64,000 bases of DNA from an uncultured Gammaproteobacteria bacterium (GCA_964399675.1 CAYNRK010000004.1:12715-76714); one strand, 5' to 3'; numbered from the stretch's first letter, positions 5,369-63,779 are shown. Notes: a model not told the origin generated them from the sequence alone. A program made the numbers and translations.

Positions 5369-5413
5369 AAATTACTTATACCAACCGTGACGATCGTCAG
5401 TTATGGTATAAGT
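5369..5413. repeat. 44-bp perfect hairpin (cttatacca..tgacgatcgtca..tggtataag), copy 1
   Basis: Nested palindrome. Near-identical copies at 5948..5992 and 54185..54236. Confidence 0.8.
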
Positions 5414-5441
5414 AATTATTATCAATTCCGTAGTTTGAAAT

Positions 5442-5948
5442 ATGTCAGCTGATAAAAAACAACAAAAGCAAATCTCAAATCTTCTTGGTAAAATCAATAA
5501 CGAAGTGAACGCGTTGTTTTCAGCAAATTGGTCATATTGCGACAGGCGTCAGTGGATTGATATATCTGACGAAGACAAGGAAAGAATTTATCAATACAGA
5601 CGACTTCAGTATTTAAAAAGAAAAAAATGGATAAAAATTAAAAAAACTGAAGAGGGATTGCTTTGTTCATTAACTCAAGTAGGAAAGAAAGAATTACAAA
5701 GACGAGAAATTATTAAGAAAAAAGAAAAATTACCTGCAGGCCAAAAATGTCTTGTGATGTTTGACATTCCTGAAGATGCACGGTCGGGCAGACACGCACT
5801 TCGCCAGTTTCTTAAAAACGCTGACTTTAAAAGAATTCAACTCAGTGTTTGGGAAAGCGATCGTGATATTGGTGAGGAGGTGAAGAAATTTATAAAAAGA
5901 GCCGGTGTCAGCAAGTGGGTAATTGTGTTCGTTGGAAAGAAGTTATAA
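5442..5948 (+). CDS. hypothetical protein with C-terminal Cas2/VapD-like segment
   Basis: C-terminal CLVMFDIPEDARSGRHALRQFLKNADFKRIQLSVWES follows the Cas2 pattern hhhhYDI..R..L...G.R.Q.SVFE. No cas1 or CRISPR array in the window. Confidence 0.4.
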   Translation: MSADKKQQKQISNLLGKINNEVNALFSANWSYCDRRQWIDISDEDKERIYQYRRLQYLKRKKWIKIKKTEEGLLCSLTQVGKKELQRREIIKKKEKLPAGQKCLVMFDIPEDARSGRHALRQFLKNADFKRIQLSVWESDRDIGEEVKKFIKRAGVSKWVIVFVGKKL

Positions 5949-5992
5949 AACTTATACCAACCGTGACGATCGTCAATTATGGTATAAGTATT
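5948..5992. repeat. 44-bp perfect hairpin, copy 2 (direct repeat of 5369..5413)
   Basis: Sequence identity to copy 1 except one base in the loop. Confidence 0.8.
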
Positions 5993-8743: not shown

Positions 8744-8945
8744 CTCATCTTGCGTCGTTGCGAGGAGCGAAGCGACGAAGCAATCTCCGTGTTATTATGT
8801 CATCCCGACCGAGCGAAGCGAGCGGAGGGATCTCGCATATTCGAGATCTCTCCGTGCGCTCGCTTTGCTCGTTTAGTCGAGATGACAAAGCATGACTACA
8901 CGGAGATTGCTTCGTCAGTCGGCTTCGCCTCCTTCCTCGCAAAGA
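8744..8945. repeat. family-A nested palindromic element
   Basis: Same four modules as 2614..2853, almost base-for-base. Confidence 0.85.
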
Positions 8946-8961
8946 CGCGGGAAATACAAAT

Positions 8962-13427: not shown

Positions 13428-13504
13428 GGGCTTGTGGAGGTAATTGGTAACCTCATCTGCTTTGACATCAGAAGTTGCGGGTTCGAATCCCGTCGAGTCC
13501 ACCA
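13428..13504 (+). tRNA. tRNA-like gene with Val(GAC)-type loop TTGACAT inside a 9-nt loop closed by a 4-bp stem
   Basis: Good acceptor, D and T arms plus CCA. Anticodon arm is tctg/caga with loop cTTTGACAt. A 12-bp leader-trailer helix (cccgagttcatgg / ccatgactcggg) encloses the body, and a terminator follows. Confidence 0.5.
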
Positions 13505-13602
13505 TGACTCGGGTTCGAGCAAATCCACTTTTAATTAAGTGGATTTGTTTTTGTAAGAAATCAGCTGGAACAATAAGTGGTTTTTTGATAGTCTGGTTTG
13601 GT

Positions 13603-15705: not shown

Positions 15706-15781
15706 GGGCCTGTGGGGGTAATGGTAACCCCGATCGAGTTGATACCGATAGCTGCCGGTTCGAATCCGGTCGGGTCCACCA
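15706..15781 (+). tRNA. tRNA-like gene with Ile(GAT)-type loop TTGATAC inside a 9-nt loop closed by a 4-bp stem
   Basis: Same architecture as 13428..13504 (stem atcg/cgat, loop agTTGATAc). Leader-trailer helix cccggg..cccggg and a downstream terminator hairpin. Confidence 0.5.
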
Positions 15782-20158: not shown

Positions 20159-20232
20159 GCGGATGTAGTTCAATGGTAGAATGTAAGCTTCCCAAGCTTG
20201 AGGCGGGGGTTCGATTCCCCTCATCCGCTCCA
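20159..20232 (+). tRNA. tRNA-Gly (anticodon CCC)
   Basis: Manual cloverleaf. Loop TTCCCAA, T-arm GGGGGTTCGATTCCCCT, encoded CCA. Confidence 0.85.
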
Positions 20233-20312
20233 AGGGGTCTTTTTTTGTTTGTAAACAGAAAACCCCCGCAGTCCAAGTCGGACTTTGGGGGCAGGGGGAG
20301 AAGTGGTTGTGG

Positions 20313-21620
20313 CTACTGACAGACGACGTTGAACTCGCCGCTGCCGAGACCACATTCGTTCCAGCGGGCCGAAGTGCAGGTGACCGTCTTGAATTCGTTG
20401 CCACCGGCCTGGGCTCGACCGACGAATGCTGCCACGTGCGTTTCGAACGGTCCTCCGCCTTCCACGCAGACTGCGTCACCGATTTCGTAGTTGGTGTGGA
20501 AGTAGACCTCGCGATTGGACGGGATCTCGAGCGGGATCTCGAGGTTCCAGATCATGAGGTACATGTGCGCTCGCTCCCGCGCCTCATCCAAATCCCGGAC
20601 GAGCGGAAGGTTCACGTACTCTACCCTGTCCTCGTACGGAACTGCCAGGTAGAGCTGGAAGGTTGTGTTGCGTCCCATTGCCCAGCTTGCACCTACCAGG
20701 ATTTCGATCGTGTCGATCGTCACCTGGTTGTACCTGGTCCTGACACGAACCGCCTGGGTGTCCAGACGGTTGTCCACTAGATCACTGCAATTGACCACCT
20801 CGGGCACGATGCGTTCGGGCTGGTCTGTGCAGAGAGCCTTGTTGCAGGGCTCGTTGGGTTCGTTGAGTTCCACACATTCGCCGTCCAGACAGAGACCGCT
20901 TTCACACGAGGAGAAGTCCTGCATTGCGCTGTGCACACATTCGCCGTCTGGCGTGCACCGATCCTGCGTGCACTCGTTGCTATCTCCGCAGTGATCGTTT
21001 CCGGTGCACTCCACGCAGCCGGTTGTTGATACTACTCCTTCGGTCTGTGAGATGCACCACCGTTCGGGCTCGTCACATACTCGAATGAGGTTCTCGCATC
21101 GGTTGTTGATGCAGAAGTACTCGCGACACGGCTCGCCTGTGATTGGGCAGTGACGGTCTTCGGTACAGTCCATGCCCGGATCCTCACCAAAGCAGACACC
21201 TTCCTCACACCGGCCATGCGTACCGCACGGCACGTTGTGGAGCGGGACACTCTCGCACCTACCGAAGTAGTTGCACTTGTCGAACGTGCACGGGTTGTTG
21301 TCCAGGCAATGCATCGGATCCGTGCATTCGATACAGCCCGGAACCTTGGTGTTGTAGGACGCGTGGGGCACGCACCACTCACCCTCGCCACAGAGGACCG
21401 ATGCCCACTCGCATCGGTTGTTGAGGCAGACCGGGATGAGACAGGCGTTGCCAGTCCCGCAGTCCAGATCCTCCCAACACTCGATGTTGGGATCGGTTGG
21501 TTGCGAACCCGCGTCCGTGTCGGAGTACGGAACTCCTGTGAACACGAGTTCACGTGTTCGTGCGTCATCGCATCCCCCGAGGAACACAACGAGCAGGGAA
21601 GCGATCATCAGCTTGTACAT
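20313..21620 (-). CDS. cysteine-rich secreted lipoprotein with Cys-repeat modules (GC-rich island)
   Basis: Signal peptide plus lipobox (..VVFLGGC). Many CxxDxxC / CTxDxC repeats. Strong SD aaggtgg. Composition about 60% GC against the AT-rich flanks. Confidence 0.7.
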   Translation of the reverse strand: MYKLMIASLLVVFLGGCDDARTRELVFTGVPYSDTDAGSQPTDPNIECWEDLDCGTGNACLIPVCLNNRCEWASVLCGEGEWCVPHASYNTKVPGCIECTDPMHCLDNNPCTFDKCNYFGRCESVPLHNVPCGTHGRCEEGVCFGEDPGMDCTEDRHCPITGEPCREYFCINNRCENLIRVCDEPERWCISQTEGVVSTTGCVECTGNDHCGDSNECTQDRCTPDGECVHSAMQDFSSCESGLCLDGECVELNEPNEPCNKALCTDQPERIVPEVVNCSDLVDNRLDTQAVRVRTRYNQVTIDTIEILVGASWAMGRNTTFQLYLAVPYEDRVEYVNLPLVRDLDEARERAHMYLMIWNLEIPLEIPSNREVYFHTNYEIGDAVCVEGGGPFETHVAAFVGRAQAGGNEFKTVTCTSARWNECGLGSGEFNVVCQ

Positions 21621-21824
21621 GTTTCCACCTTTGTGGATGACCGGCCATCGGCCTACCTTTTACGCTCGCGCGTCCGTTTGTCATTGCTGAAAATGACATT
21701 CGGAGGTCAAGATCTCTAAACAATTCAATCAGGTTGGCGCCTAATCAAACAGAGAAACAATATACCAGAAAATTAGGCTTTTGTCAACAGTTCTCGTATG
21801 GTAAAATGAATAAGCTTTTGGAAT

Positions 21825-24983: not shown

Positions 24984-25188
24984 GGCTCTTTGGTTTTCAT
25001 TACCCAGTCTCCTTTTCCTCGGTTCGAGAGTGTGGTCGATTTGGTTAAGGTTTTGTATCAGAAAACCAAAAGTCTGTCAATCCAAAACAACCTTATTATT
25101 AAAAGAGAATTTTTTACTCAAAAAGAAAAGCCGCGCCTTAGAGTAGACGGGCCGTGCGTGTGCTGCTCATGGCAGCTGGTTGCTGCGG

Positions 25189-25521
25189 TTAGGCAGCGAT
25201 CGGGACGATCTCGTAGCTTCCGAAGCGTCCGATACCACCGATGGCGGCCTTGTCAGCGCTTGTCAGGCCGAAGAGCTCGGTGTATCCCGCTGCCACGTTG
25301 GGGTGGAAGCCGGCGAGCAGTCTCGCGAGTGTTCCGGTTCTGGTGCCCATGCCGCCTTCGGGGCTGTCGAGGAAGGCCTCGAAGCTGCCATCGTCGCGAC
25401 GTTCGATGTGGTTATCCCACAGAGACCTGCCCCACATGATCCACCTCTCGACCCTGATCACTCTGCCATCTCTGACAGTGATCTTGTTCGGGGGAAGCTC
25501 GACGTTTGCTCGGCTGGCCAT
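25189..25521 (-). CDS. hypothetical protein (GC-rich island)
   Basis: 110-aa ORF in a roughly 60% GC block. Shares the downstream gcggcttttctttttga motif. Confidence 0.4.
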   Translation of the reverse strand: MASRANVELPPNKITVRDGRVIRVERWIMWGRSLWDNHIERRDDGSFEAFLDSPEGGMGTRTGTLARLLAGFHPNVAAGYTELFGLTSADKAAIGGIGRFGSYEIVPIAA

Positions 25522-25662
25522 GAAGCACCTTCCTTGTCGATGATCTGTTTCGGATGGAGTTAATTATTTTTACAGGTATGAAGTTGCATTGTCAACAAAA
25601 ACACCTTCATCAGAGAGAAGGGTTTGTTGATTTTTCTTTACACATGAGGAAGAATAAGATAT

Positions 25663-38012: not shown

Positions 38013-38085
38013 ATTATCCTGAATTTTTAAGCGACAAAAAACTGAAACAGGGCAGCGGTAATGTTGTCTGGAAAAATTTCCTAGA

Positions 38086-38142
38086 AAAAAATACTTATAA
38101 AATACTTCTCGATCGAGAAGTATTTTATAAGTATTTTTTTGG
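38086..38142. terminator. 54-bp perfect palindrome (A-tract tacttataaaatacttctcgatcgagaagtattttataagta T-tract)
   Basis: Bidirectional terminator-like. Same family as 24640..24690, 5369..5413 and 54185..54236. Confidence 0.7.
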
Positions 38143-38225: not shown

Positions 38226-38672
38226 TCACACGCGCGTGCAGGTTTTGGCCTCGCAGTCAATGTGACATGCATCGCCCTTTTCGATTTCTTGTCCCCTGAA
38301 GTTGGCACCAAGCACGTCTTCTCCGTAGTCCTCAGGGAACCACCTCGTATACTCGAAGTGGGTTACCAGGATCAGGAAATCGGCTTGATCCGCATGCTCC
38401 TGGATCAGGGCAATGGCAGCGTCTGAGTCCATTGGATGGCTGGCTTCCGACCAGAGCACCTCGTGTTCGGTGAAGCTGACACCGAACAGGTCGGCCAGGA
38501 TCTGGGCGCTCTCGCTTGCTCGATCCTTGGTCGATGAGAGTATGCACACGGAAGCGTTGCCGATGCGCTCCTTCAGCCTAGCGTGCAGTGCGCGAATCTG
38601 CTCGGTACCGCGTTTGGAGAGGTGGTCATCGGCTTTGTAGTGACCGTGCCGGACCACAATCAGACTCTTCAT
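38226..38672 (-). CDS. histidine phosphatase family protein (SixA / phosphoglycerate-mutase-like), GC-rich island
   Basis: N-terminal LIVVRHGHY (RHG catalytic motif). SD ggagga. Followed by ccgccag..ctggcgg hairpin and T-tract. Confidence 0.7.
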   Translation of the reverse strand: MKSLIVVRHGHYKADDHLSKRGTEQIRALHARLKERIGNASVCILSSTKDRASESAQILADLFGVSFTEHEVLWSEASHPMDSDAAIALIQEHADQADFLILVTHFEYTRWFPEDYGEDVLGANFRGQEIEKGDACHIDCEAKTCTRV

Positions 38673-38916
38673 ATTCTTCCTCCAACATGGAGATCAAGGC
38701 TCCGTTCTCACCATCTCATCGATATGAGAGCTGGGGAGAATTTAGGCTTGTTTCTAGCTGAATATTAGTAAGAAAAATTATCATAAAAAGACTTTTTTGT
38801 CAACACAAAATCGTCAGCTTTCGCTGAGCGCATGTGGCTTGCCACGTGAACACCGACGTTGTACTACACTACAGCCCCGTAAAATTGACATACCGACATG
38901 GTCAATCACGTGGCAC

Positions 38917-39315: not shown

Positions 39316-40207
39316 AAAAATTTATTGAAAATTCGATTATTTTTTTGGCAATGTCTTTGCCGGTAACTTCCTCCAAGGCTTTAAATCCAGGATTGGCATT
39401 TACTTCCAAAACAAGCGGTCCACTTTCAGATCTAATAAGATCAACTCCTGCAATTTCAAGGTTAACTGATTTTGCAACTTTTACTGCAAGTTGTTTTTCC
39501 TGATCTGATAATTCAATTTCTTTTCCTGTTCCACCTGTTGAAGTGTTTGCTCTAATGTCTCCAGAAGACGCTGATCGTTCCATTGCGGCAATTACTTTAT
39601 TTCCAATCACAAACGCACGCACATCTTTTCTTTCTGCCTCTTTGACAAATCGTTGAACAATAATTGGATTGTGATCTCGGATTGCTAAGTATTCAGCAAT
39701 TGGCTGAAAAGTCTCTTTGTCTGGCGCATAAAATACACCCTTACCATGAGTTCCAAATGCAATTTTGATAATCACAGGAAAACCAAGTTGATTTGCAAAC
39801 ACTAAAGCTTGTTCAGGATTTTTTGTGATTGCTGATTCAGGATGAGGAATGTCATTATTTTGAAAATGTAGTAATTGTCTAATTTTGTTTTTTGATAAAC
39901 CAAGATGATGCTTGCTGTTTATCAATTTAAATCCAGATTGATTTAAATAATGAATCGGATGCATGTGCAAGCTTGGCTCTTCAATAAAGTTTGGTCTTGG
40001 AAGAATTACATCAAGTTTTGGAAGTGGTTTTCCATCATAAAGATAACCCCCCCTAACCCCCCCTTGAAAGGGGGGGGAACAAAACAAAAAGTTTGGTTCG
40101 TACAATCGAACTGTTTCATGTCCAAGCTCTTTTGCAGCTTCTTCAAGTCGATCAACACTTGAATATTGCTCCCAGGATTGTTTTGAAATAAGAATTCCAA
40201 TTTTCAT
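39314..40207 (-). CDS. RimK-family ATP-grasp ligase (alpha-L-glutamate ligase-like)
   Basis: ATP-grasp C-terminal half (..AGVDLIRSESGPLVLEVNANPGF..). Contains an in-frame family-C element (..[12 protein letters not shown]..). The track N-terminus 40208..40321 is read-through of a family-A repeat. Confidence 0.7.
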   Translation of the reverse strand: MKIGILISKQSWEQYSSVDRLEEAAKELGHETVRLYEPNFLFCSPPFQGGVRGGYLYDGKPLPKLDVILPRPNFIEEPSLHMHPIHYLNQSGFKLINSKHHLGLSKNKIRQLLHFQNNDIPHPESAITKNPEQALVFANQLGFPVIIKIAFGTHGKGVFYAPDKETFQPIAEYLAIRDHNPIIVQRFVKEAERKDVRAFVIGNKVIAAMERSASSGDIRANTSTGGTGKEIELSDQEKQLAVKVAKSVNLEIAGVDLIRSESGPLVLEVNANPGFKALEEVTGKDIAKKIIEFSINF

Positions 40208-42637: not shown

Positions 42638-44005
42638 ATGTTGCTTTCTTTTCATGGGGCGGCGCGGGGGGTAACCGGATCTTGTCATTTATTAAAATTA
42701 AAAGACGCTGATGGCAAAGATCATCAGCTTCTTTTTGATTGTGGAATGTTTCAAGGCGAAAATTTGTGTGGATCAAAAAACTTGGAAGACTTTGGTTTTG
42801 ATCCAAAACAAGTTGATGCGTTATTTATCACACACCCTCATGTGGATCACACCGGACGAATACCAAAGTTGGTCAAGGAAGGTTTTTCCGGTTCGATTTA
42901 TATGACGCATCCGTGCCATGGATTATCAAAGCTTGTTTTGGAAGATGCGTATCATATTATGACAGAAGATGCTGAAAAGTGTGGAAGTTCTGTTTTGTAT
43001 GAATTGAAAGATTTAATGAAATCATTTGAACAAATAAAAACAGTTTCATATCACGAGCAGGTGGATGTTGCTCCAGGTGTTAGTATCATGTTCCATGATG
43101 CAGGGCATGTGTTAGGCTCCTCGTTTATTTCTGTTGAAGCAGAAGGTAAGCGTGTTGTTTTTTCAGGTGATATTGGAAACGACAATGTGCCAATATTGCC
43201 GGACACAGAGGCCCTTTCAAAAGCTGATGTTGTTATTTGTGAAGCAACATATGGACATAGAGTTCATGAGGAAAGGTCTGAGAGGTCAAAAAAGCTGAAA
43301 GAGGCTTTGGAGGAAACAATAAAAAATAAATCGGTTTTGATGATTCCGGCTTTTTCAATTGAGCGAACCCAAGAATTGTTATACGAGATTGACAGGATTC
43401 TTTTGAATGAACTTAAAACAAAGATTCCGATTTTTCTTGATAGTCCAATGGCAATAAAGGCTACTCAGCTTTATCGAGATTTTAAACAGTTTTTACAATT
43501 TGATGTTTCAATTTTAAGCGAACCGGATCGGGACTTTTTTACTTTTAAGAATCTGCGTGAGACTCTTTCAAGAGATGAATCAAAAGAGATTAACTATACA
43601 AAACCACCAAAGGTTATTATTGCCGGCTCTGGCATGATGTCTGGGGGACGAATTATGCATCATTTGATTCGTTATCTTCCTGATTCAAAAAATCAAGTTT
43701 TGATTATTGGTTTTCAGGCCAAAGGAACACTTGGGCGAAAGATTTTTGAGGGAGAAAAAAAGGTGCACATATTTCGAGAGGAGGTTGAAGTAAAAGCAAA
43801 GGTGTCAGCCATTGGCGCGTTTTCAGCGCATGGTGACATGAACAAACTTACAAAATGGCTTAAGCCGGAAGATGGGAAAGTGCCTGAACAGATTTTCCTT
43901 GTGCATGGGGATCCTGAAGCAAAAGAATTATTTGCAACTCATCTAAGACACAAATTACGAACTGACGTGATTGTGCCCGGGTATCATAGCGAACACGAAA
44001 TTTAA
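42638..44005 (+). CDS. beta-CASP metallo-beta-lactamase family ribonuclease (RNase J / CPSF-like)
   Basis: HxHxDH (ITHPHVDHTG) plus beta-CASP motifs. Length about 455 aa. Confidence 0.7.
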   Translation: MLLSFHGAARGVTGSCHLLKLKDADGKDHQLLFDCGMFQGENLCGSKNLEDFGFDPKQVDALFITHPHVDHTGRIPKLVKEGFSGSIYMTHPCHGLSKLVLEDAYHIMTEDAEKCGSSVLYELKDLMKSFEQIKTVSYHEQVDVAPGVSIMFHDAGHVLGSSFISVEAEGKRVVFSGDIGNDNVPILPDTEALSKADVVICEATYGHRVHEERSERSKKLKEALEETIKNKSVLMIPAFSIERTQELLYEIDRILLNELKTKIPIFLDSPMAIKATQLYRDFKQFLQFDVSILSEPDRDFFTFKNLRETLSRDESKEINYTKPPKVIIAGSGMMSGGRIMHHLIRYLPDSKNQVLIIGFQAKGTLGRKIFEGEKKVHIFREEVEVKAKVSAIGAFSAHGDMNKLTKWLKPEDGKVPEQIFLVHGDPEAKELFATHLRHKLRTDVIVPGYHSEHEI

Positions 44006-44032
44006 AACACCCGCCTTGAGCGGGTGTTTTTG
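44006..44032 (+). terminator. rho-independent terminator
   Basis: cacccgc-cttga-gcgggtg followed by TTTTT. Confidence 0.75.
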
Positions 44033-44130
44033 TCACCCCCCTCTTTTTGCGTCTTTGCGAGCCCCCTTTCGCGGAAAGGGGCGAAGCCCGTCCGAACGGC
44101 CGCAAGGCCGGGCGGGCAATCTCCGTTGAG
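44033..44130. repeat. GC-rich family-A variant (gcgtctttgcgagccccctttcgcggaaaggggcgaagcccgtccgaacgg..)
   Basis: Module 1 plus a cccctttcgcggaaagggg hairpin. Confidence 0.6.
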
Positions 44131-44245
44131 AACTATGTAGGACAGTCACGTTGTATAATTTCGGCAGACTCGCTTCGCTCGTGCTGGCGAAATTATACAA
44201 TATACCTGTTGATGGCGTCCTGGAGGTTCGTTGGAGGATTGTGGG
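44131..44245 (+). repeat. family-B repeat (about 110 bp), copy 1
   Basis: gacagtcacgttgtataatttcggcag..ctggcgaaattatacaa..cctgttgatgg..ttcgttggaggattgtg. Near-identical to 45412..45530 and 56521..56635. Confidence 0.85.
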
Positions 44246-44462
44246 GGACAGTCATGTTGTTTCACATGCACACAGGAAAAATTTTCTTGCTGCGGAACTC
44301 GTGCTCTTTGTTGTTTATTTTAAAGGTAAGCACTCAGACAGTCCTCGCTGCAAAAATTTTCCCTGTGTGCATGTGAAACAAATCCGAGGGCATTATTAAA
44401 TAGAAAAACCGCCAGAGCTTTCAGTGAAAGATGGCGATCTGATTGCTTGCTGAGTTCGTGGC

Positions 44463-45296
44463 CTAGGCCGCGAGCGGGAAGCGGTCGTGAAGGAGCTTCA
44501 TGGCGTTGAGCCCGATGAGTGCGGCTTCTTCGTCGCCGGTGACCTCGAACGTGTTGGTCTGGCGATTGCCGTAGATGGCGTTGACCGAGCCGGCCCAGTA
44601 GCCGCCATGGGTCATGCACCAGACGTAGATCGTTGCCGACTCCATGGAGTAGAGCAATACACCGCGTTGGGTCAGCTCGTCGTGGAGCATTTGCAAGCGC
44701 GGAGGGATGTAGCCCATGTCGTCCGGTCGTGCCTGGCCTTCGTTGAAGCACGTGGTTGTTGCCTCAATGCCGACGTGGTGCGGCAGGCTGAGAGTCTCGG
44801 CAGCCTCGATGAGCGCAGCGATCACTCGGTGGTCAGCGAATGCAGGATACTCGATCGGCGCCCAGTTGGTGCTGGCGCCATCCAGTCGAACAGCCCCGCT
44901 TGCGATGGCTGATTCACCGACGTTCGGCTCTCTCTGGAGCGTGGAGCATGAGCCCACACGGATAAAGCGCTCTGCTCCCGAACGCACTGCCTCGGGCAGC
45001 ACAATGCCCGTGGATGCGCTGCCCATGCCGGTTGTGACCACAGACATGGGAACGCCCTGGAATTCGCCGGTGAAGCTCCTGAGCCCCCGGTGATCACCGA
45101 CCTTGATCGCCCCGGGACCGAAGAAGCGGCTCACCAACTCCTCAGCATCCTTGATCGGATCTGTTCCGGCGATCAGCTCTGCCCGTTCGGGTGAGCCCAC
45201 CAACAGGCAGTGGGGCGCCAGATCGTGTGCGTCTGTGTGGAGATGGTATTGCTTGCCACCTGCAGAGGTTGGGGCGTCAGCCTTTCTATCGCTCAT
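44463..45296 (-). CDS. nucleoside phosphorylase, PNP/UDP family 1 (purine/uridine phosphorylase-like), GC-rich island
   Basis: ..HCLLVGSPERAELIAG.. N-terminal fold and ..TGMGSASTGIVLPE.. segment typical of PNP_UDP_1. Confidence 0.7.
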   Translation of the reverse strand: MSDRKADAPTSAGGKQYHLHTDAHDLAPHCLLVGSPERAELIAGTDPIKDAEELVSRFFGPGAIKVGDHRGLRSFTGEFQGVPMSVVTTGMGSASTGIVLPEAVRSGAERFIRVGSCSTLQREPNVGESAIASGAVRLDGASTNWAPIEYPAFADHRVIAALIEAAETLSLPHHVGIEATTTCFNEGQARPDDMGYIPPRLQMLHDELTQRGVLLYSMESATIYVWCMTHGGYWAGSVNAIYGNRQTNTFEVTGDEEAALIGLNAMKLLHDRFPLAA

Positions 45297-45411
45297 GAAA
45301 CCCTCCTGGTTTCGCAGAGGTTCAAAAACAAAAACCGTTCGTATATTTACAACGGTTTAAGTGTTCTGTCAACCATGTCGCTTTATACGAAGCAATCTCC
45401 GGGAGACTTTT

Positions 45412-45530
45412 GGGGGACAGTCACGTTGTATAATTTCGGCAGACTCGCTTCGCTCGTGCTGGCGAAATTATACAACGTACCTGTTGATGGTGGCTTGGGG
45501 GTTCGTTGGAGGATTGTGTGAGTGCGGGTG
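45412..45530 (+). repeat. family-B repeat, copy 2 (direct repeat of copy 1)
   Basis: Over 90% identity by eye. Confidence 0.85.
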
Positions 45531-45576
45531 TTTAATAATGGACAGTCTGTTAATTTTATTTTAGTATGATCTCGTT

Positions 45577-47433
45577 ATGACCGATCAAAAGCAAATTCGG
45601 AATTTTTGCATTATTGCACACATTGATCATGGTAAGTCGACCCTTTCGGATCGGCTTCTTGAATTTACCGGCACAGTTGAAAAGAGAAAAATGCAAAATC
45701 AGATTTTGGATACAATGGAGCTGGAAAGGGAGAAAGGAATTACAATAAAGCTTGCGCCGGCAAGGATGGAGTATGACTACACACCAATAACCCCCCCTAA
45801 CCCCCCCTTGAAAAGGGGGGGAACTTACGTTCTCAATCTAATTGATACTCCGGGTCATGTTGATTTTAATTATGAAGTTTCTCGATCATTGGCAGCTGTT
45901 GAGGGCGCAATACTTTTAGTTGATGCAACTCAAGGTGTGCAAGCGCAAACCATTGCAAATCTTTTTTTGGCCATTGAAGAGGATTTAGAAATTATCCCTG
46001 TTCTTAATAAGATCGATCTTCCGGCAGCAGATGTTCCAGCACGAACAAAAGAAATTGTGAAACTTATTGGATGTGATCCAAAAGAGGTTTTGGCTGTAAG
46101 TGGAAAAACAGGCGAAGGTGTTGAAGCGCTTCTTGATGCAATTGTTAAGCGCATTCCAGCACCAAAAGGAAATACAGATGCGAATCCTCGAGCTTTGATT
46201 TTTGATTCTTTTTATGATGACTACCGTGGAGTCATGGCTTATATTCGCATGGTAGATGGTTTGCTTGAGAAAGGTTCAAAAATTGAAATGATTGGAACAA
46301 GTGCGCGCGCTGAAGTGTTGGAAATAGGGGCTGTTACTCCAAATGGACTAAAACCAAGTCCTGAATTTTCAACCGGGCAAATCGGTTATGTTGTCACAGG
46401 GCTTAAAGATATTTCCGCATGTCGAGTTGGTGATACTATAACTTCGGGAACCCCCCCTAACCCCCCCTTGAAAAGGGGGGGAACGTCACCGCTTCCGGGC
46501 TATAAAGATGTAAAGCCAATGGTTTTTGCTGGAATGTTTCCGCAAGAAGGTAATGACTTTCAAAAGTTAAGAGAAGCAATTGAAAGGCTAAAATTAAATG
46601 ATTCAGCGTTGATTTATGAACCAGAACACTCACCGGCGCTTGGTTATGGATTTCGGTGTGGGCTTTTGGGAATGTTGCATTTGGAGATTTTAAAAGAACG
46701 ACTTGAGCGTGAGTTTAATTTGGAACTTGTTGTTACTGTTCCATCAGTTGCGTATCAGGTTCATCAGCGTTCCAAAGAAATGATTATAATCAAGAGTCCG
46801 CTTGATCTTCCGGATCCGTCACATATTGATTTTATTGAAGAGCCATGGGTAAAATTAGATATTGTTACACCAACGGATTATGTTGGTGCTGTAATGCAGT
46901 TGGTGCAGGATAGGCGCGGTACTTACAAGAACACAGAATACCTTTCTGAGAATCGGGCGATTTTGCATTACGAGATTCCGCTTTCAATGATCATTGTTGA
47001 TTTTTACGATAAACTTAAAGGAGTAACAGCCGGATACGCATCAATGAATTATGAGGTCATTGATTATCGTGAAGCAAATGTTGTGCGTATGAATATTTTA
47101 GTGGCTGAGGATACTGTTGATGCGTTTGCTACACTTGTCTATCGAGATGAGGCGGATAAGGCTGGACGGAGAATTGTGAAGTCACTTAAAGAATCAATTC
47201 CGCGAGCAAACTTTGTAATCAAACTGCAAGCCGCTGTTGGTGGTAAGATTGTTGCAAGTGAAAGAATTTCCGCAGTTCGAAAAGACGTGACTGCAAATTT
47301 GTATGGAGGTGACGTAACACGGAAGCGCAAACTGCTTGAAAAGCAAAAGAAAGGAAAAGCTAAAATGCTAGCTCATGGAAAAGGAAAGGTAAATATTCCA
47401 ACGAATGCATATTTGAATGTTTTAAAAAGATAG
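45577..47433 (+). CDS. lepA: elongation factor 4
   Basis: FCIIAHIDHGKSTLSDRLL G1 motif and LepA-specific C-terminal domain. Two in-frame family-C insertions (PPNPPLKRGGT) at 45789..45825 and 46449..46485. Confidence 0.9.
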   Translation: MTDQKQIRNFCIIAHIDHGKSTLSDRLLEFTGTVEKRKMQNQILDTMELEREKGITIKLAPARMEYDYTPITPPNPPLKRGGTYVLNLIDTPGHVDFNYEVSRSLAAVEGAILLVDATQGVQAQTIANLFLAIEEDLEIIPVLNKIDLPAADVPARTKEIVKLIGCDPKEVLAVSGKTGEGVEALLDAIVKRIPAPKGNTDANPRALIFDSFYDDYRGVMAYIRMVDGLLEKGSKIEMIGTSARAEVLEIGAVTPNGLKPSPEFSTGQIGYVVTGLKDISACRVGDTITSGTPPNPPLKRGGTSPLPGYKDVKPMVFAGMFPQEGNDFQKLREAIERLKLNDSALIYEPEHSPALGYGFRCGLLGMLHLEILKERLEREFNLELVVTVPSVAYQVHQRSKEMIIIKSPLDLPDPSHIDFIEEPWVKLDIVTPTDYVGAVMQLVQDRRGTYKNTEYLSENRAILHYEIPLSMIIVDFYDKLKGVTAGYASMNYEVIDYREANVVRMNILVAEDTVDAFATLVYRDEADKAGRRIVKSLKESIPRANFVIKLQAAVGGKIVASERISAVRKDVTANLYGGDVTRKRKLLEKQKKGKAKMLAHGKGKVNIPTNAYLNVLKR

Positions 47434-47534
47434 TATGAAAAAGAAAACAAAGTTCCGAATCTTTTGGGGTGTTGTTGGGGGAATGGTGATCATCAGCATG
47501 GTCATGTTTACGGTTGCTATTGGTTTTGGGCTCT

Positions 47535-47615
47535 AGTTGTCATCCCGAGCGAGGCGCAGCCAAGCCGAGGGATCTCGCATATTCGAGATTTCTCCGCTCG
47601 CTGTGCTCGGTCGAA
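47535..47615. repeat. family-A palindromic element
   Basis: gtcatcccgagcgaggcgcagccaagccgagggatctcgcatattcgagatttctcc..tcgaaatgac. Confidence 0.8.
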
Positions 47616-49378: not shown

Positions 49379-49475
49379 GAAATACTAACCACCCCTAACC
49401 CCTCCTTGAAAAGGAGGGGAATAATGCATGTCGGTTGAAAGTTCTCCCCCTTTTTAAGGGGGAGTTAGAGGGGGT
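49379..49475. repeat. family-C palindromic element (aaccacccctaacccctccttgaaaaggaggggaa) plus second hairpin tctccccctttttaagggggag
   Basis: Direct repeat of 49852..49892. The same core sits in frame inside lepA, ligA, pilD and the RimK-like gene. Confidence 0.85.
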
Positions 49476-49488
49476 TATGATTTTGGAT

Positions 49489-49848
49489 ATGTATAACGAA
49501 CTTTTCAATAAAAAAGAAAAGAAAACTTTCAGACAAAAATTACGAACTGATCCAACAGCAGCAGAAAAACAGTTGTGGCCACATCTGCAAGGTAGACAAA
49601 TAGAAGGATTGAAGTTTCGGCGTCAGCATGGAATCGGAAAGTATGTCGTCGATTTCTATTGTCCTGAAATCAAACTTATTATAGAGGTTGATGGTGATTC
49701 ACATTTTGAACCTGGAGCTCAAGAAAAAGATGTTGAACGAGAGAGAAGTCTTATTAATAGTGGTTTTCGAGTTTTGCGCTTTACCGATCGTGACATTTTT
49801 GATTCGATGGAAGATGTGATTGAAATTATAAAATCAAATTTATACTAG
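49489..49848 (+). CDS. DUF559 / Vsr-like (PD-(D/E)xK fold) endonuclease-domain protein, copy 1
   Basis: ..KFRRQHGIGKYVVDFYCPEIKLIIEVDGDSH..RVLRF.. pattern of the very-short-patch-repair-like DUF559 family. Start set after the repeat-derived 18 codons. Confidence 0.7.
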   Translation: MYNELFNKKEKKTFRQKLRTDPTAAEKQLWPHLQGRQIEGLKFRRQHGIGKYVVDFYCPEIKLIIEVDGDSHFEPGAQEKDVERERSLINSGFRVLRFTDRDIFDSMEDVIEIIKSNLY

Positions 49849-49851
49849 AAA

Positions 49852-49892
49852 TACTAACCACCCCTAACCCCTCCTTGAAAAGGAGGGGAACT
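49852..49892. repeat. family-C palindromic element
   Basis: gaaatactaaccacccctaacccctccttgaaaaggaggggaa. Confidence 0.85.
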
Positions 49893-52740: not shown

Positions 52741-52890
52741 ATGTCCCCCTTTTCAAGGGGGACTACAGGGGGTTAGCATTTCATAAGCATAACCACCCCT
52801 AACCCCTCCTTGAAAAGGAGGGGAATAATGCATGTCGGTTGAAAGTTCTCCCCCTTTTTAAGGGGGAGTTAGAGGGGGTTAGCATTTTGA
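52741..52890. repeat. family-C element cluster (gtcccccttttcaagggggac; aaccacccctaacccctccttgaaaaggaggggaa; tctccccctttttaagggggag)
   Basis: Paralogous to 49379..49475. Confidence 0.85.
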
Positions 52891-52892
52891 AT

Positions 52893-53252
52893 ATGTATAA
52901 CGAACTATTTAATAAAAAAGACAAGAAAACTTTTAGACAAAAATTACGTACTGATCCAACAGCAGCAGAAAAGTTGTTATGGTTGCATTTGCAGGGTAAG
53001 CAAATGGAAGGATTAAAGTTTCGGCGGCAGCACGGAATCGGAAAGTATGTCGTTGATTTCCATTGTCCTAAAATTAAACTTGTTATTGAGGTTGATGGTG
53101 ATTCGCATTTTGAATCAGGAGCTCAGCAAAAAGATTCCGAACGAGAGCAATATCTAATCAACAAAGGTCTTCGAGTTTTACGGTTTACTGATCGTGACAT
53201 TTTTGATTCGATGGAGGACGTTGTTGAAATTATTCAATCAAACTTATACTAA
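52893..53252 (+). CDS. DUF559 / Vsr-like endonuclease-domain protein, copy 2
   Basis: About 90% identical to copy 1 at protein level (alignment by eye). Confidence 0.7.
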   Translation: MYNELFNKKDKKTFRQKLRTDPTAAEKLLWLHLQGKQMEGLKFRRQHGIGKYVVDFHCPKIKLVIEVDGDSHFESGAQQKDSEREQYLINKGLRVLRFTDRDIFDSMEDVVEIIQSNLY

Positions 53253-53285
53253 CCACCCCTAACCCCTCCTTGAAAAGGAGGGGAA
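53245..53285. repeat. family-C palindromic element
   Basis: tactaaccacccctaacccctccttgaaaaggaggggaa. Confidence 0.85.
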
Positions 53286-53456: not shown

Positions 53457-54044
53457 ATGGCTGCAAGTATTGGTCAGGCATTGGAGCTCATGACAAAGCT
53501 CGCAACAGCAGTCCCGTGGGGCGAGCTGGACAAACAGTTCGTTCAAGGTCTCATCGCTGACCCAGAGATCGGTTCTGAGTTCGTCTACTTCCTTCGAAAC
53601 TGGGGCGGGTCGGTCGTCGGTGAGCAGATCATCGACCTCGAAGTCAATCCGTTCATTCCGGATGGTTCTGAGATCTGCCCCAAGGACCAGATCGACAGCA
53701 GCGTTTGCGGCAAGTTCATCTTCGACCCCGATCAGATCGAGCTACATCTCGATTCGGGTCAGGAAGACGAGGAGTCGATCCAAGGCTATGACCTGCGCAG
53801 AGCCCTTGAGGGTCAGCCGGTTTTGCCCGCACATGTTCTCGACTTCCTGCTCGAGAACCCGCACTTCATCCCGGAGAGCTGGGAGGACAAGGGGGTGTTC
53901 TTCTGGGGCACCATCTACCGCTGCTCGGGCGGCAGCCTGTATGTCCGTTGCCTCCGCTGGCGCGGTGCTAGGTGGTGCTGGCGCTACGGCTGGCTTGGCG
54001 ATCACTGGGGCTCCGACGATCCTGCTGCGGTTTCCGCAAGCTAG
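53457..54044 (+). CDS. hypothetical protein (GC-rich island)
   Basis: ORF in a roughly 60% GC block. Preceded by TTGACA-like promoter elements and a 5' hairpin ctttgccacag..ctgtggcaaag. Confidence 0.45.
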   Translation: MAASIGQALELMTKLATAVPWGELDKQFVQGLIADPEIGSEFVYFLRNWGGSVVGEQIIDLEVNPFIPDGSEICPKDQIDSSVCGKFIFDPDQIELHLDSGQEDEESIQGYDLRRALEGQPVLPAHVLDFLLENPHFIPESWEDKGVFFWGTIYRCSGGSLYVRCLRWRGARWCWRYGWLGDHWGSDDPAAVSAS

Positions 54045-54184
54045 GATCTGGGAATCTGGAGCTCTGGTTACTAAGCTCTTTGAACTCTTGACTCCTAGCT
54101 CTCAACGGCCAATCACACTCGTGAACGGTCGTTTTTCAATTTAATTATTGATTTTTAAATTATCGAAAAACTTTTTAGAAAAAA

Positions 54185-54236
54185 TACTTATACCATTCGT
54201 GACGATCGTCAGTTTTGGTATAAGTATTTTTTAGTA
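54185..54236. terminator. perfect hairpin acttatacca..tgacgatcgtca..tggtataagt flanked by A-tract and T-tract
   Basis: Third copy of the 5369/5948 element. Confidence 0.7.
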
Positions 54237-54323: not shown

Positions 54324-56348
<2,025 letters not shown>

Positions 56349-56379: not shown

Positions 56380-56520
56380 CTTCATCCTGTGTCATTGCTC
56401 TCCCCTGCGTCGTTGCGAGCCCCCTTTCGTGAAACGGGGCGAAGCAATCTCCGTAAAGAATTCCCTCGTGTCCTGCACCTTGTGTCATTGCGAGCGAAGC
56501 GAAGCAATCTTCGTAAAGAA
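56380..56520. repeat. family-A module cluster
   Basis: gtcattgc..gcgtcgttgcgagccccctttcgtgaaacggggcgaagcaatctccgt.. repeated twice. Confidence 0.8.
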
Positions 56521-56635
56521 TTATGGGGGACAGTCACGTTGTATATAATTTCGGCAGTACTCGCTTTGTTCCGTGCTGGCGAAATTATATACAACGTACC
56601 TGTTGATGGCAGACTGAGTGTTCGTCGGAGGATTG
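56521..56635 (+). repeat. family-B repeat, copy 3
   Basis: gacagtcacgttgtatataatttcggcag..ctggcgaaattatatacaa..cctgttgatgg..ttcgtcggaggattgtg. Confidence 0.8.
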
Positions 56636-56656
56636 TGGATTTTTTTAAATAGATTT

Positions 56657-60358: not shown

Positions 60359-60464
60359 ATCCCGCGCTCTAGGCGCGCGCCTTGGGTGCTGGAAATTTGT
60401 GAAGAGATGTGGCGAGTGGTATGACCAAGAGTCATCCGACTTGCCGCAACCTCTTCAGAAATTT

Positions 60465-60545
60465 CTCATGTCATCCCGAGCGAGCGCAGCGAGCCGAGGG
60501 ATCTCGCATATCCGAGATTTCTCCACTCGCTGCGCTCGGTCGAAA
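60465..60545. repeat. family-A palindromic element
   Basis: gtcatcccgagcgagcgcagcgagccgagggatctcgcatatccgagatttctcc..tcgaaatgac. Confidence 0.8.
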
Positions 60546-60563
60546 TGACAAGGAAGTAAGGAG

Positions 60564-61124
60564 GTGCGAATGCACAACTCGGTTGTTGCCATGTTCTGTG
60601 GCCCGCACGAGGACGGAAGGCCTACCTCCCGTCGCATCAACGCAGCGATCCAGACGGCCATGGGTCTGAAGGCACCGTTGATGATCGCCGGGGACGCGAA
60701 CGATGGCAAGGACCTGGAGTTGTTTGCCGGTCGCGCACACCGCCGTTCTCCCGCCCTGGATGTTGTCAAGCTCTACGACGAGCGCGCCAACACGCTCGCT
60801 GACGTCCAGATTCTCATCGAAGAGCTTCGCGAGCACAGGCATCGCGGAGTCACCACGATCTACCTGGTCACGGACTGGTGGCACATGCCCCGTTCGTTCG
60901 TGATGCTCGCCCTGGAGCTTCAGAACTTGATGCCAGAGCGTCGCTTTGACATCCAGATCGTGAACGTGCGGTGTCCTGAGCCGCCTCATGAAGAGCTTCT
61001 CGGAGAGCGGCAGGGAATCATGCACTACCTTGCTGGCACTTACGGCAGCCACGAGCTCACACGAAAGCCGTACGGAAAGCCAGCACAGGAACGTGCACTC
61101 GCGGCTCCTGTAGCCGCGAACTAA
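60564..61124 (+). CDS. DUF218 (YdcF/SanA-like) domain protein, GC-rich island
   Basis: ..IYLVTDWWHMPRSFVML.. matches the conserved DUF218 core. Strong SD aggaggt. Confidence 0.6.
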   Translation: MRMHNSVVAMFCGPHEDGRPTSRRINAAIQTAMGLKAPLMIAGDANDGKDLELFAGRAHRRSPALDVVKLYDERANTLADVQILIEELREHRHRGVTTIYLVTDWWHMPRSFVMLALELQNLMPERRFDIQIVNVRCPEPPHEELLGERQGIMHYLAGTYGSHELTRKPYGKPAQERALAAPVAAN

Positions 61125-61179
61125 AGAGCGCCAGACCATCTACTCGGTCCAGCGCTCATTTCTTTTTATTATTTTGCGT

Positions 61180-61262
61180 CTTTGCGAGAAAGCCCGTCAG
61201 ACGGGCTGACGAAGCAATCCCCGTAACAACGGAGATTGCTTCACCCCCACTTTTTTCAGAAG
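61180..61262. repeat. family-A palindromic element
   Basis: gcgtctttgcgagaaagcccgtcagacgggctgacgaagcaatccccgt..acggagattgcttc..cgcaacgacgca. Confidence 0.8.
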
Positions 61263-61286
61263 TGGGGGTTCGCAACGACGCAATGA

Positions 61287-61658
61287 TTACCTAAACAAAT
61301 TACCCCAAAATCCTTTTTTAGATTTACTGTCAGTTGTATCTTGGGAGTCGTTTGCAGGTTTTAGATTTTTAATAAATTGCGCAAGTCGTTCCATCTCTTT
61401 TTCAACAAGCACACCTTCATATTCGCCGCCATGTGCGCTTGTGCCTTCGTATGTTGCTGCCTTTTGATCTAAGTGTAGATTTATTTGCATTCCATTATCT
61501 CGATCTTCAACGTATGCGTGATAGCGAGGAAATCGTTCAGATGCCACACGTTTAACATAACTGATTTGTCCTTGCCGAGTGCGCTGTTCACCATAACCAA
61601 GACGTCTTAAGATGTTGCGCGAATGGTCAGCAAGCGGCCCTGAAAAAAATTGTTTCAT
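61287..61658 (-). CDS. hypothetical protein, paralogue A (..FPRYHAYV..INLHLDQ..YEG..EMERL..)
   Basis: Tandem paralogue of 61765..62166 (shared motif string). Family not recognised. Confidence 0.45.
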   Translation of the reverse strand: MKQFFSGPLADHSRNILRRLGYGEQRTRQGQISYVKRVASERFPRYHAYVEDRDNGMQINLHLDQKAATYEGTSAHGGEYEGVLVEKEMERLAQFIKNLKPANDSQDTTDSKSKKGFWGNLFR

Positions 61659-61664
61659 ATCTGT

Positions 61665-61750
61665 TATCCTGCGTCATTGCGAGGAGGCCGAAGGCCGACG
61701 AAGCAATCTCCGTACACGGGGATTGCTTCGGTCGCAAAGCTCCCTCGCAA
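61665..61750. repeat. family-A palindromic element
   Basis: gtcattgcgaggaggccgaaggccgacgaagcaatctccgtacacggggattgcttcggtcgcaaagctccctcgcaaagacgc. Confidence 0.8.
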
Positions 61751-61764
61751 AGACGCAGAGGCAA

Positions 61765-62308: not shown

Positions 62309-62761
62309 ATGAGACTGCAAGGCATTCTGACACTGATCGCACTGCTTTTCCTGTCGGTGGTGGCTTGCAGACCGCCGCTCGAGTTCCTGCGTGGCGATGA
62401 TCACCTTTCCGATCAGAAAGAGTCCGAGCTCGATATGAGCCGTGCCGATCCGATCGTCAAGACAGTCGCCAAGATCTACAAGGGCAAGGAGGAGCTTCGA
62501 CAAGACGACATGGTCGATCTTTCCTGCGACGATCTCTACTTGCTCTGGCGAGCACTCTTCAGCAAGTACTTTCACTCAAACCTCGGCACCTGTCTGAAGG
62601 AGGGTGAGATCTGTTTGCGTCGGGAGGGTGTGGCCTGGATCGCAGAGGACGATCATGGTTTCAAGGACGACCCGCATACCATCAAGAGGTTCACCAAGGT
62701 CGACCGGAGCAATCGGCGTGCAATCGCCGCAATGAGATCTGAGAGTGGTTGTACTGACTAG
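62309..62761 (+). CDS. hypothetical lipoprotein (GC-rich island)
   Basis: Signal peptide with lipobox ..SVVAC. About 60% GC. Confidence 0.5.
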   Translation: MRLQGILTLIALLFLSVVACRPPLEFLRGDDHLSDQKESELDMSRADPIVKTVAKIYKGKEELRQDDMVDLSCDDLYLLWRALFSKYFHSNLGTCLKEGEICLRREGVAWIAEDDHGFKDDPHTIKRFTKVDRSNRRAIAAMRSESGCTD

Positions 62762-62898
62762 GGCATCACATGGCCCCAGGAACACGATCTGATCGCTTTC
62801 ACACTAGCTGCCCACTGGGCGGCTCTTTCGTTTGACAAAAATAGGCTTTTGGTGTAGGGTATTCACTCGGAAAAAGATGAACCGAGAGGAGGAAAACG

Positions 62899-63684
62899 AT
62901 GAGAAATCGTACGAGCACTGCGGCGAGCTGGATGGCAATCGCCATCGTGTTCGCCTTCTCCGTTCCCATGGTCGCAACAGCTGAGGAATCCGACACCGAA
63001 GCCGGAGCCGAAGGCGAAGGTGAGGGCGAAGGTGAGGGCGAGGACGGAGCCGAACCCGCCGAGGTGGTCTTGACAGGGGGAGGAACGGACGACGTCGTTC
63101 TGTCGAACACCGGCGGTGGTGGCAAGAAGGCCAAGAAGAAGGTCAAGAAGGGCAAGTGCGCTGACGGGAGCGACTGCGACTGTCGGAAGGCGGTCAGAGT
63201 CGCGCTCAAGGAAGCACGCGACGGATTCAAGAAGGCCAAGAAGAAGGCCAAGAAGGCCGCTGGAGAGCAGCAAGAGGCAGCCATCAGGGCTGCGGTCGAG
63301 AAGGCCGAGACAGCACTTCGCGCAGAGCTTCACAAGGGCGAAGAGGAGCGAGCCGAGGAAAAGGTCAAGAGGGCTCTCGCAGGCAGGCGTTCAGAGTTCC
63401 ACCTGGAGTGGATCCTCGAGGGCATGTTCGCGGGAACCGAGCTCACAGACCACGTGCTCGCCGAGCTGGATTGTGCACAACTGGGCATGCTCAAGATCAT
63501 GCCGCGTGCACGTCACGGATATGTCCCGGAAGACATGGAAGTGCGCAGGAAGCTCCTTGCTCAGGAGTGGTACAAGCCGAATCCTGCAGTCGACGACGCA
63601 GCTCTGCCCAGCCGCATGACCTCGGCGGATCAGCTCAACGAGCTCCGGATCAACAAGGCGCTCACTGCCAAGGAATGCGAGTAG
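62899..63684 (+). CDS. secreted protein with acidic (EGEG)n and Lys-rich regions and C-terminal YARHG-like domain (GC-rich island)
   Basis: Signal peptide. C-terminal ..[28 protein letters not shown].. matches the YARHG motif. SD gagaggagg. Confidence 0.55.
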
Positions 63685-63779
63685 TACAACAACTACCCGC
63701 AAGTCCACCACGACCGCTCAGCAATGGGCGGTTTTCAAATTGAAAAAAAAGTTTGAATGTTGTATATTCCGATGGTTGT

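Follow-up and report, generated by a model that had tools for sequence, protein, structure and literature searches.

The locus between the beta-CASP RNase gene and lepA

The stretch of DNA analysed here, 64,000 nt deposited as an uncultured Gammaproteobacteria bacterium (GCA_964399675.1, CAYNRK010000004.1:12715-76714; hereafter the window), carries a GC-rich nucleoside phosphorylase gene of the PNP/UDP family on the minus strand, with a direct copy of a ~130-nt repeat, here called family B, at either side. The gene and both repeats lie in the spacer between the gene of a beta-CASP/metallo-beta-lactamase RNase and lepA (44006-45576). All coordinates are those of the whole 64-kb window; the annotated stretch amounted to 71 kb, namely the window and 7 kb beyond it. 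The features of the locus, together with the third copy of B in the window, are the following.

42638-44005, plus strand: gene of the beta-CASP/metallo-beta-lactamase RNase, 455 aa, left conserved flank (Pfam Beta-Casp, Lactamase_B and RMMBL)
44008-44038, plus strand: intrinsic terminator of the beta-CASP gene; terminator-like stem and T run at 44012-44026 and onward
44040-44138, plus strand: palindrome arm of family C (TGCGTCTTTGCGAG...GCAATCTCCGT) with nested GC-rich mini-hairpins
44116-44243, plus strand: B1, the left copy of B, type I; hairpin arms 44142-44167 and 44184-44209; covariance model 133.7 bits, E 2e-33
44244-44385, plus strand: long hairpin H2 with 29-bp arms at 44257-44285 and 44353-44381
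44404-44436, minus strand: intrinsic terminator of the PNP gene as read from the sequence, CGCCA...TGGCG and then TTTTT
44463-45296, minus strand: PNP/UDP-family gene, 277 aa, uridine-phosphorylase-like (PF01048)
45302-45372, minus strand: putative expression signals of the PNP gene, likewise read from the sequence; ribosome-binding site (RBS) AGGAGG at 45302-45307, -10 box TAAATA at 45344-45349, -35 box TTGACA at 45367-45372, spacer of 17 nt
45392-45518, plus strand: B2, the right copy of B, type I; hairpin arms 45417-45442 and 45459-45484; covariance model 139.3 bits, E 8e-35
45539-45567, plus strand: predicted lepA promoter, TGGACA-17-TAGTAT, whose -35 box overlaps the fifth copy of the motif GGACAGTC
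45577-47433, plus strand: lepA, 618 aa, right conserved flank (Pfam GTP_EFTU and LepA_C)
56504-56637, plus strand: B3, the third copy, type II (TA added in both hairpin arms); covariance model 119.1 bits

The segment 44048-44087 of the C arm is 90% identical to 56406-56445, and the unit B opens with the tail of the arm (44116-44138), which was aligned across all six B copies described below. H2 opens with the same 17 nt as B (GGGGACAGTCATGTTGT), the remainder of it is unique within the window, and a comparable hairpin comes after copy B4 on another contig, L102. The PNP terminator was absent from a simple terminator scan because its loop is longer than 8 nt. The putative PNP promoter was not listed by a consensus promoter scan, and its -35 box would lie inside the 5' end of a degenerate C arm, which follows this promoter and precedes B2. 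Contigs of many samples, drawn from three data sources, showed the same arrangement of the PNP gene and B; the junctions are therefore not assembly artefacts.

The composition of the PNP gene differs strongly from that of its surroundings. Its GC content is 0.622 in a window of 0.418, and its GC content at third codon positions (GC3) is 0.745, compared with 0.316 and 0.309 in the two neighbouring genes. The product belongs to the PNP_UDP_1 superfamily (PF01048, E 1.6e-22; 80.5 bits against a cutoff of 25.1). The preliminary description of this locus had spoken of a foreign, GC-rich minus-strand PNP/UDP gene between direct repeats, and these data (GC3 0.745 versus ~0.31) bear it out: the gene is a recent horizontal acquisition. 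Structures of E. coli-type UDP matched the product at E 3e-33, and the uridine phosphorylase equivalog TIGR01718 scored 179.6 bits, which is under its curated cutoff of 280.3. The product thus shares the PNP_UDP_1 fold family with the bacterial uridine phosphorylases (Udp; TIGR01718, PDB 1k3f and relatives), which are its best matches, but differs from them in lying below the equivalog cutoff and in having ~15 additional N-terminal residues. It is closest to uridine phosphorylases, and this substrate specificity is putative.

The top homologues of the product all come from Patescibacteria; the nearest one other than the protein itself is 74% identical, and its cluster includes a uridine phosphorylase of Magasanikbacteria. 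A homologue in another Uhrbacteria genome adjoins a cytidine deaminase gene at an unrelated location, that is, in a pyrimidine salvage context. In both other Patescibacteria lineages examined, too, no gene of the locus was richer in GC than the udp-like gene (6001-6801 on L099 and 6001-6810 on L100), with a GC3 of 0.78 against 0.38-0.74 at one homologue locus and of 0.63 against 0.41-0.58 at the other. There are hints that this gene has been transferred repeatedly among Patescibacteria.

The lineage of the window is Candidatus Uhrbacteria of the Candidate Phyla Radiation (CPR), without a close sequenced relative. The orthologues of its beta-CASP protein in metagenome-assembled genomes (MAGs) of Uhrbacteria are 57-75% identical; the search for closer relatives of this protein yielded none above 76% amino acid identity among 5.8 billion proteins and none above 75% in genome contigs. 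The gene order VKOR-betaCASP-lepA-recJ is nevertheless retained in 30 Uhrbacteria loci. In eight of these, the gap between the beta-CASP gene and lepA is only 21-72 bp, and a PNP homologue lies in the interval in none of the 30. This agrees with the earlier claim that the gene was inserted: relative to the conserved Uhrbacteria synteny, the PNP gene is a true insertion. In other MAGs of the Uhrbacteria set (loci L012-L050) the interval holds 0.35-7 kb of differing genes, among them those of a Cys/Met pyridoxal phosphate (PLP) enzyme (at least four MAGs), a ZIP transporter, an SNF2 helicase, MetRS and GCS2. As the occupants differ across lineages, the beta-CASP-lepA interval is a plastic slot and the PNP gene is the occupant of this lineage. 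The interval is a class-wide hot spot of plasticity.

In Neisseria, the neisserial intergenic mosaic elements (NIME), the Correia elements and the minimal mobile elements offer examples of mosaic intergenic repeats and of single variable genes that are swapped between conserved flanks without a transposase. There, incoming DNA is taken up by transformation and recombines through homology in the conserved flanks, and such exchange has been documented among strains. The variable beta-CASP-lepA slot, whose occupants were compared here across lineages, is much like the minimal mobile elements. The CPR bacteria (Patescibacteria) have tiny genomes and depend on nucleotide salvage, and the gain of single metabolic genes in them is poorly documented. 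The locus is a clean case of such a gain, with a udp-like salvage gene of unameliorated composition at a conserved junction of housekeeping genes, the spacer of which shows plasticity throughout the class.

Structure and dispersal of family B

The three same-strand copies of B reported in the window are real and far beyond chance. B1 and B2 share their orientation and are 89.8% identical over 128 nt (blastn, E 1e-44) at a spacing of 1275 nt, so that strong divergence of the flanking copies, which would have spoken against the pair, is not seen; a repeat scan aligned them over 116 nt at 91% identity. B3 is 83-85% identical to both (blastn), and the copies are 110-135 nt long. An unfiltered covariance model run over the 64 kb recovered exactly B1, B2 and B3 (E 1e-29 to 1e-35), its next match (E 0.012) being an unrelated AT-rich palindrome.

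For further copies, the B query was translated into six-frame peptides, and a protein search with these recovered two open reading frame (ORF) calls that run into B. These calls lie on contigs of the same sample series, which share the repeat families of the window and contain three more copies. One of them (B6) lies on contig L103 between dnaK and a NUDIX gene. The other two lie on contig L102, 1104 nt apart, around a gene of 186 aa (g186), which is native in GC content (0.40-0.42) and whose order uvrD ... g186 ... lexA is kept in the only relatives found. B4 comes after uvrD and B6 after dnaK, and a variable patch is common to both; as these loci are unrelated, B has been copied between loci. 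The density of B is 3 copies per 71 kb, or about 1 per 20 kb.

The six-copy alignment gave the order of the unit as GCAATCTCCGT, a near-invariant hairpin of 26-31 bp, ACCTGTTG, a hypervariable patch of 14-16 nt and a conserved GTTCGTTGGAGGATTGTG. The repeat begins at GCAATCTCCG, ~23 nt earlier than previously described, and its opening part belongs to the tail of a different repeat family, namely of an abundant palindrome arm (GCAATCTCCGTAAAGAA...). The inverted repeat extends over 26 bp at 88% complementarity, and over 31 bp in B3, and the stem of 16 bp assigned to it before was too short. The likeness of its loop to an abundant family was correctly noted: the loop CTCGCTTCGCTCG matches, in reverse, the core of the ...GCGAGCGAAGCGA... 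family, with six exact 13-nt matches elsewhere in the window. An outer stem, GCAATCTCCG/TGGAGGATTGT, was predicted from the alignment and would pair the first and last blocks in a rod-like fold. It is 10 bp long, imperfect and conserved in the six copies, and its left arm belongs to the other repeat family. The last block of B resembles the start of the opposite arm of the complete C-type palindromes (8752-8948 and 61668-61757); B thus resembles a C-type palindrome whose apex bears a specific insert and whose right arm is truncated.

The abundant nested palindromes of this kind (TGCGTCRTTGCGAG...CGAAGCAATCTCCGT / ACGGAGATTGCTTCG...CTCGCAAAGACGCA) are found at 8752-8948, 60469-60550, 61172-61290, 61668-61757, 47480-47570, 56390-56520 and other places. 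Further mini-hairpins are inserted in their arms and apex, and B is built on one such arm.

Two subtypes can be told apart. Type I comprises B1, B2 and B5. Type II (B3, B4 and B6) has an additional TA in each arm and another loop; the L102 pair thus holds one copy of each. The cores of B1 and B2 are identical at 61 of 62 positions, with 61 nt of uninterrupted identity and diverged segments on both sides. The hairpin core of B5, which lies on another contig, differs from both by 1 nt. The close agreement of the B1 and B2 cores is for this reason a property of the whole family and does not point to local duplication. In the segments outside the core, the distance between B1 and B2 is no smaller than their distance from B3.

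A coding function was considered and rejected: the reading frame differs between the subtypes, with a frame shift midway in B3, and no peptide is conserved, so that B is non-coding. The predicted proteins with B peptides are products of real genes that had been extended too far at the N-terminus. A sigma-70-like promoter was not found on the sense strand of B, where the TATAAT of the stem has no usable -35 box.

All six copies match the strand of their neighbouring genes, and five of them lie 7-300 nt upstream of a start codon; B3, for instance, is placed between ligA and gatC, 19 nt ahead of the gatC start (56657), with no foreign gene attached. The fixed orientation and the alternation of conserved and variable blocks are features of note and suggest a possible role for B at the RNA level. 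In this explanation, B would primarily be a functional RNA element, either an RNase III-type processing or stabilising stem-loop or a structure of 5' untranslated regions, which punctuates long same-strand transcription units, and the copies flanking the PNP gene would serve the 3' end of the beta-CASP transcript and the 5' end of lepA. It shares its account of the bracketing with the reading that we prefer below and differs from it on the purpose of B. We rate it as quite improbable. The co-stranded copies, most of them close upstream of a start codon, are consistent with it, but the distances to the start codon span 7 to ~300 nt, the downstream genes are functionally unrelated, and the orientation bias reaches a p of only ~0.03 at six copies. 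As GC skew is positive throughout, this bias also equals a bias in the direction of replication.

The folding data are similarly divided. The copies all fold better than shuffled sequences (z -3.1 to -6.3), the added TA in both arms keeps the stem, the consensus rod has several G-U pairs on the sense strand, and conserved blocks beside the hypervariable patch argue for constraint and not merely for young copies. The sense strand also folds 6-16 kcal/mol lower than the antisense strand, but this advantage disappears against shuffles, whose means differ by ~12 kcal/mol and whose z-scores are similar on both strands. The asymmetry is thus explained by base composition, because the shuffles show the same difference. 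In the hairpin, 20 of the 23 stem pairs are invariant and no two-sided substitution occurs, which gives no covariation support.

Searches of Rfam returned nothing for B at the gathering threshold, only chance-level miRNA and leader matches at E up to 10. Neither the covariance model nor blastn detected B in the loci of 60 relatives; absence from all relatives examined would be unusual for a needed RNA. The exact pattern ACAGTCACGTTG N40-70 ACCTGTTGATGG, which recovers the copies of the window, had no occurrence in viral or metagenome contigs, in a collection that evidently does not hold the source population. Literature searches for such repeats in CPR gave nothing relevant. As far as the Rfam and literature searches show, the B family is undescribed.

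Origin of the bracketed arrangement

We consider it probable, at roughly 0.6, that B is a general intergenic spacer repeat and not the boundary of a cassette, and that the PNP gene was acquired separately in a plastic slot. The pair on L102 surrounds a native syntenic gene and consists of different subtypes, and B pairs therefore arise without gene insertion. B3 and B6 are solitary at housekeeping junctions, ahead of gatC and of the NUDIX gene, respectively. The preliminary description had proposed to check whether other GC-rich islands are flanked by B: none of the six others in the window has B or comparable direct repeats at its sides. When the flanks of all seven islands were compared for shared cassette ends, only a terminator-like match of 15 nt (AGAAAAACCGCCAGA) was found, between the islands at 38 and 44 kb.

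The six further islands, each of a single gene, lie at 20173-21713, 25097-25567, 38266-38727, 53528-54140, 60449-61243 and 62475-63757. Their GC3 is 0.65-0.73 where measured, compared with ~0.31, and several are on the minus strand amid plus-strand housekeeping genes.

In the mechanism that we favour, B is a dispersed, lineage-specific, non-coding intergenic repeat of ~130 nt, comparable to the mosaics of repetitive extragenic palindromic (REP) sequences and bacterial interspersed mosaic elements (BIMEs) or to miniature inverted-repeat transposable elements (MITEs), and copied between non-homologous loci. It may spread as a selfish or structural element, by a trans-acting function or by recombination. 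The foreign gene would have landed in a plastic intergenic slot populated by such REP/BIME-like repeats, probably by illegitimate or homology-facilitated recombination after DNA uptake, as a single-gene acquisition from a donor that was probably a GC-richer Patescibacterium; it would have brought its own promoter, RBS and terminator. The gene would then be bracketed since each of the two spacers made by the insertion carries one B module.

B is a new sequence family of a known kind, that of the intergenic mosaic palindromes of the REP/BIME/MITE type. Like REP/BIME elements and the REPINs (REP doublets forming hairpins) with their REP-associated tyrosine transposases (RAYTs; Y1 HUH enzymes whose gene the repeats usually flank), it consists of extragenic imperfect palindromes with long hairpins that occur only between genes, in mosaics. 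Such palindromes are specific to a lineage, inherited vertically and multiplied by copying inside the genome. The six copies occupy five intergenic sites, each fused to a C-arm tail, as is characteristic of dispersed extragenic mosaic palindromes. BIMEs, too, lie between same-strand genes and can affect mRNA ends. The differences are that no RAYT or IS200-like gene was seen in ~105 kb (window, L094 extension, L102 and L103), that B lacks a GTAG-type 5' tetranucleotide and is longer (~130 nt), asymmetric, of a single orientation and of a new sequence family, and that its density in the 71 kb covered is low; REP and REPIN sequences reach tens to hundreds of copies per genome. The likeness to MITEs lies in the short, non-coding, multi-copy and foldable unit, nested in other repeats, with a putative imperfect terminal inverted repeat, GCAATCTCCG / TGGAGGATTGT; B departs from them in that its left end is fused to another repeat family and that a related autonomous element is not known. 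The six-copy alignment showed no short flanking direct repeat as a target-site duplication, the left boundary being buried in the C-type arrays.

Several points weigh against this reading. The B set amounts to six copies in those ~105 kb, which is few, and L102 and L103 were placed in the genome of the window by inference from shared samples and repeats. B1 is the only copy that is not upstream of a same-strand gene, and it has the appearance of a remnant of some earlier arrangement or of a side product of the insertion. Pairs 1.1-1.3 kb apart occur at two of the four B-bearing loci, which exceeds the expectation from density (rough combined p ~0.01), and this clustering may reflect some local process, duplication or recombination. 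Finally, the 8-mer GGACAGTC occurs five times in the window, all at these elements, against an expectation of 1.1, and an additional copy of it trails both B1 and B2; the duplicated segment may thus exceed B, as in a Campbell-type event.

An event of this type is at the centre of an alternative that we hold to be unlikely, though by no means negligible. A circular or episomal DNA with the PNP gene and one B would have entered a resident C-B module upstream of lepA by a single RecA-type crossover, duplicating B, and recombination between B1 and B2 could excise the 1275-bp unit; B would then be portable homology and not an att site. Removal of one repeat unit gives the order gene-C-B-lepA, which matches the ligA-C-C-B3-gatC architecture, both flanking copies are of type I, and the GGACAGTC.TGTT motif follows each of them. 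However, no chimeric pattern of native and incoming sequence appeared with B3 as the reference, the flanks of B1, B2 and B3 being similarly diverged (0.66-0.75 and 0.82-0.86), and a GC-rich foreign donor is unlikely to have carried a repeat specific to this lineage. The 61 nt of uninterrupted identity suffice for homologous recombination, but the identical core is also present in B5 on another contig. The L102 pair, with its two subtypes and its native gene, likewise speaks against this alternative.

The assemblies were informative in the same respect. Several of them break within B1 or B2, as an excisable unit might produce, but such breaks are expected of k-mer assembly at a 61-nt repeat. 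Wherever a contig was of sufficient length to cover the whole site, the site was filled; these contigs stem from several samples (20, 14 and 9 contigs read in three look-ups). A contig of 1341 bp that reaches from B1 to B2 (L010) runs on into B2-specific sequence, so it closes no circle. The empty site or circular form that a mobile cassette implies was thus not met: the exact-protein look-ups of PNP, beta-CASP and LepA gave filled sites only, with short contigs ending inside B. Of the two recombination routes considered earlier, the site-specific one fails, whereas homologous recombination between B copies is possible, although positive evidence for it was not obtained and all spanning contigs are filled.

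The site-specific route, in which B would be an attC- or att-like site for a dedicated tyrosine or serine recombinase, is highly improbable and largely refuted. What recalls integron cassettes is one ORF between direct, imperfectly palindromic sites, and the 110-130 nt of B fall within the attC range (57-141 nt class). Nevertheless, none of the genes in the window or 7 kb beyond matched a Pfam recombinase, transposase, integrase or reverse transcriptase (RT), so that neither an integrase nor a tyrosine recombinase is at hand, and there is no IntI, attI, Pc or array. The PNP gene is not promoterless but has its own terminator and a putative promoter. The anatomy of attC, 5'-R'' (RYYYAAC) L'' ... 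L' R' (GTTRRRY)-3', is reversed in B, where the 5' arm contains GTTGTAT and the 3' arm ATACAAC, each with one mismatch to the consensus. Furthermore, B occurs solitary at housekeeping junctions and around a native gene, the other foreign islands are without it, and its pattern was not found in the viral or metagenome contig collections.

Two other candidates were tried and rejected. A diversity-generating retroelement, in which mismatches are restricted to the adenines of one copy, does not fit, as there is no RT in the window and the differences between B1 and B2 include C/T and T/G, neither copy having A at all differing sites. Nor is this a tRNA-targeted island, which would have an integrase and a duplicated tRNA 3' end at its borders, for no tRNA lies within 5 kb of the PNP gene and there is no integrase.

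It is improbable, in our estimate, that B, perhaps together with the tRNA-like pair described below, stands for a hitherto unrecognised class of structured modules between CPR genes, which would punctuate or process long same-strand transcripts, provide portable homology by which single genes are inserted, swapped or excised between housekeeping genes without transposase or integrase, or do both. The second role would amount to repeat-driven cassette exchange, without insertion sequences, in genomes poor in classical mobile elements. In the reading that we prefer, the locus shows that a cassette-like architecture can arise from dense intergenic mosaic repeats alone, which calls for caution in scans based on sequence only.

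Other repeats and genes in the window

A second gene between direct structured repeats was observed in the window. A tRNA-like pair at 13428-13504 and 15706-15781, called tRNA-Ser(tga) by ARAGORN at only 76-77 nt (Rfam 32 and 40 bits), is 84% identical including the flanks, has compensatory stem changes and brackets a PPDK_N/PEP-utilizer gene at 13444-15582. Elsewhere, a lone Cas2-like/PaaX_M protein of 168 aa is encoded at 5442-5948, without a CRISPR array or further cas genes in its vicinity.

A palindromic element of 36-46 nt with a C run and a G run (TAACCCCCCCTAACCCCCCCTTGAAAAGGGGGGGAA) lies in frame in conserved housekeeping genes, twice in lepA (45784-45829 and 46444-46489) and once in ligA (54810-54855), where it adds a peptide of 12 residues. 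It also occurs at 40040-40085, and non-coding copies are present at 49382, 49851, 52210, 52786 and 53246. The first copy in lepA inserts 16 aa between conserved GTPase motifs, an insertion that five Uhrbacteria orthologues lack. These in-frame insertions are similar to the Rickettsia palindromic elements. A 505-bp repeat of 87% identity, at 49386-49890 and 52790-53285, contains in each copy a small gene of a DUF559/Vsr-like endonuclease; flanked by the C-run/G-run elements, it may be a selfish endonuclease unit.

Finally, AT-rich perfect palindromes of 48-56 nt (AAAAAATACTTATAAAATACTTCTCGA|TCGAGAAG...) are located 3' of genes at 38085-38140, 54179-54232, 5370-5417 and 5947-5992, as well as at 11018-11069 and 11502-11553 on L103, and one of them is identical between the window and L103. 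These palindromes are probably bidirectional terminators.

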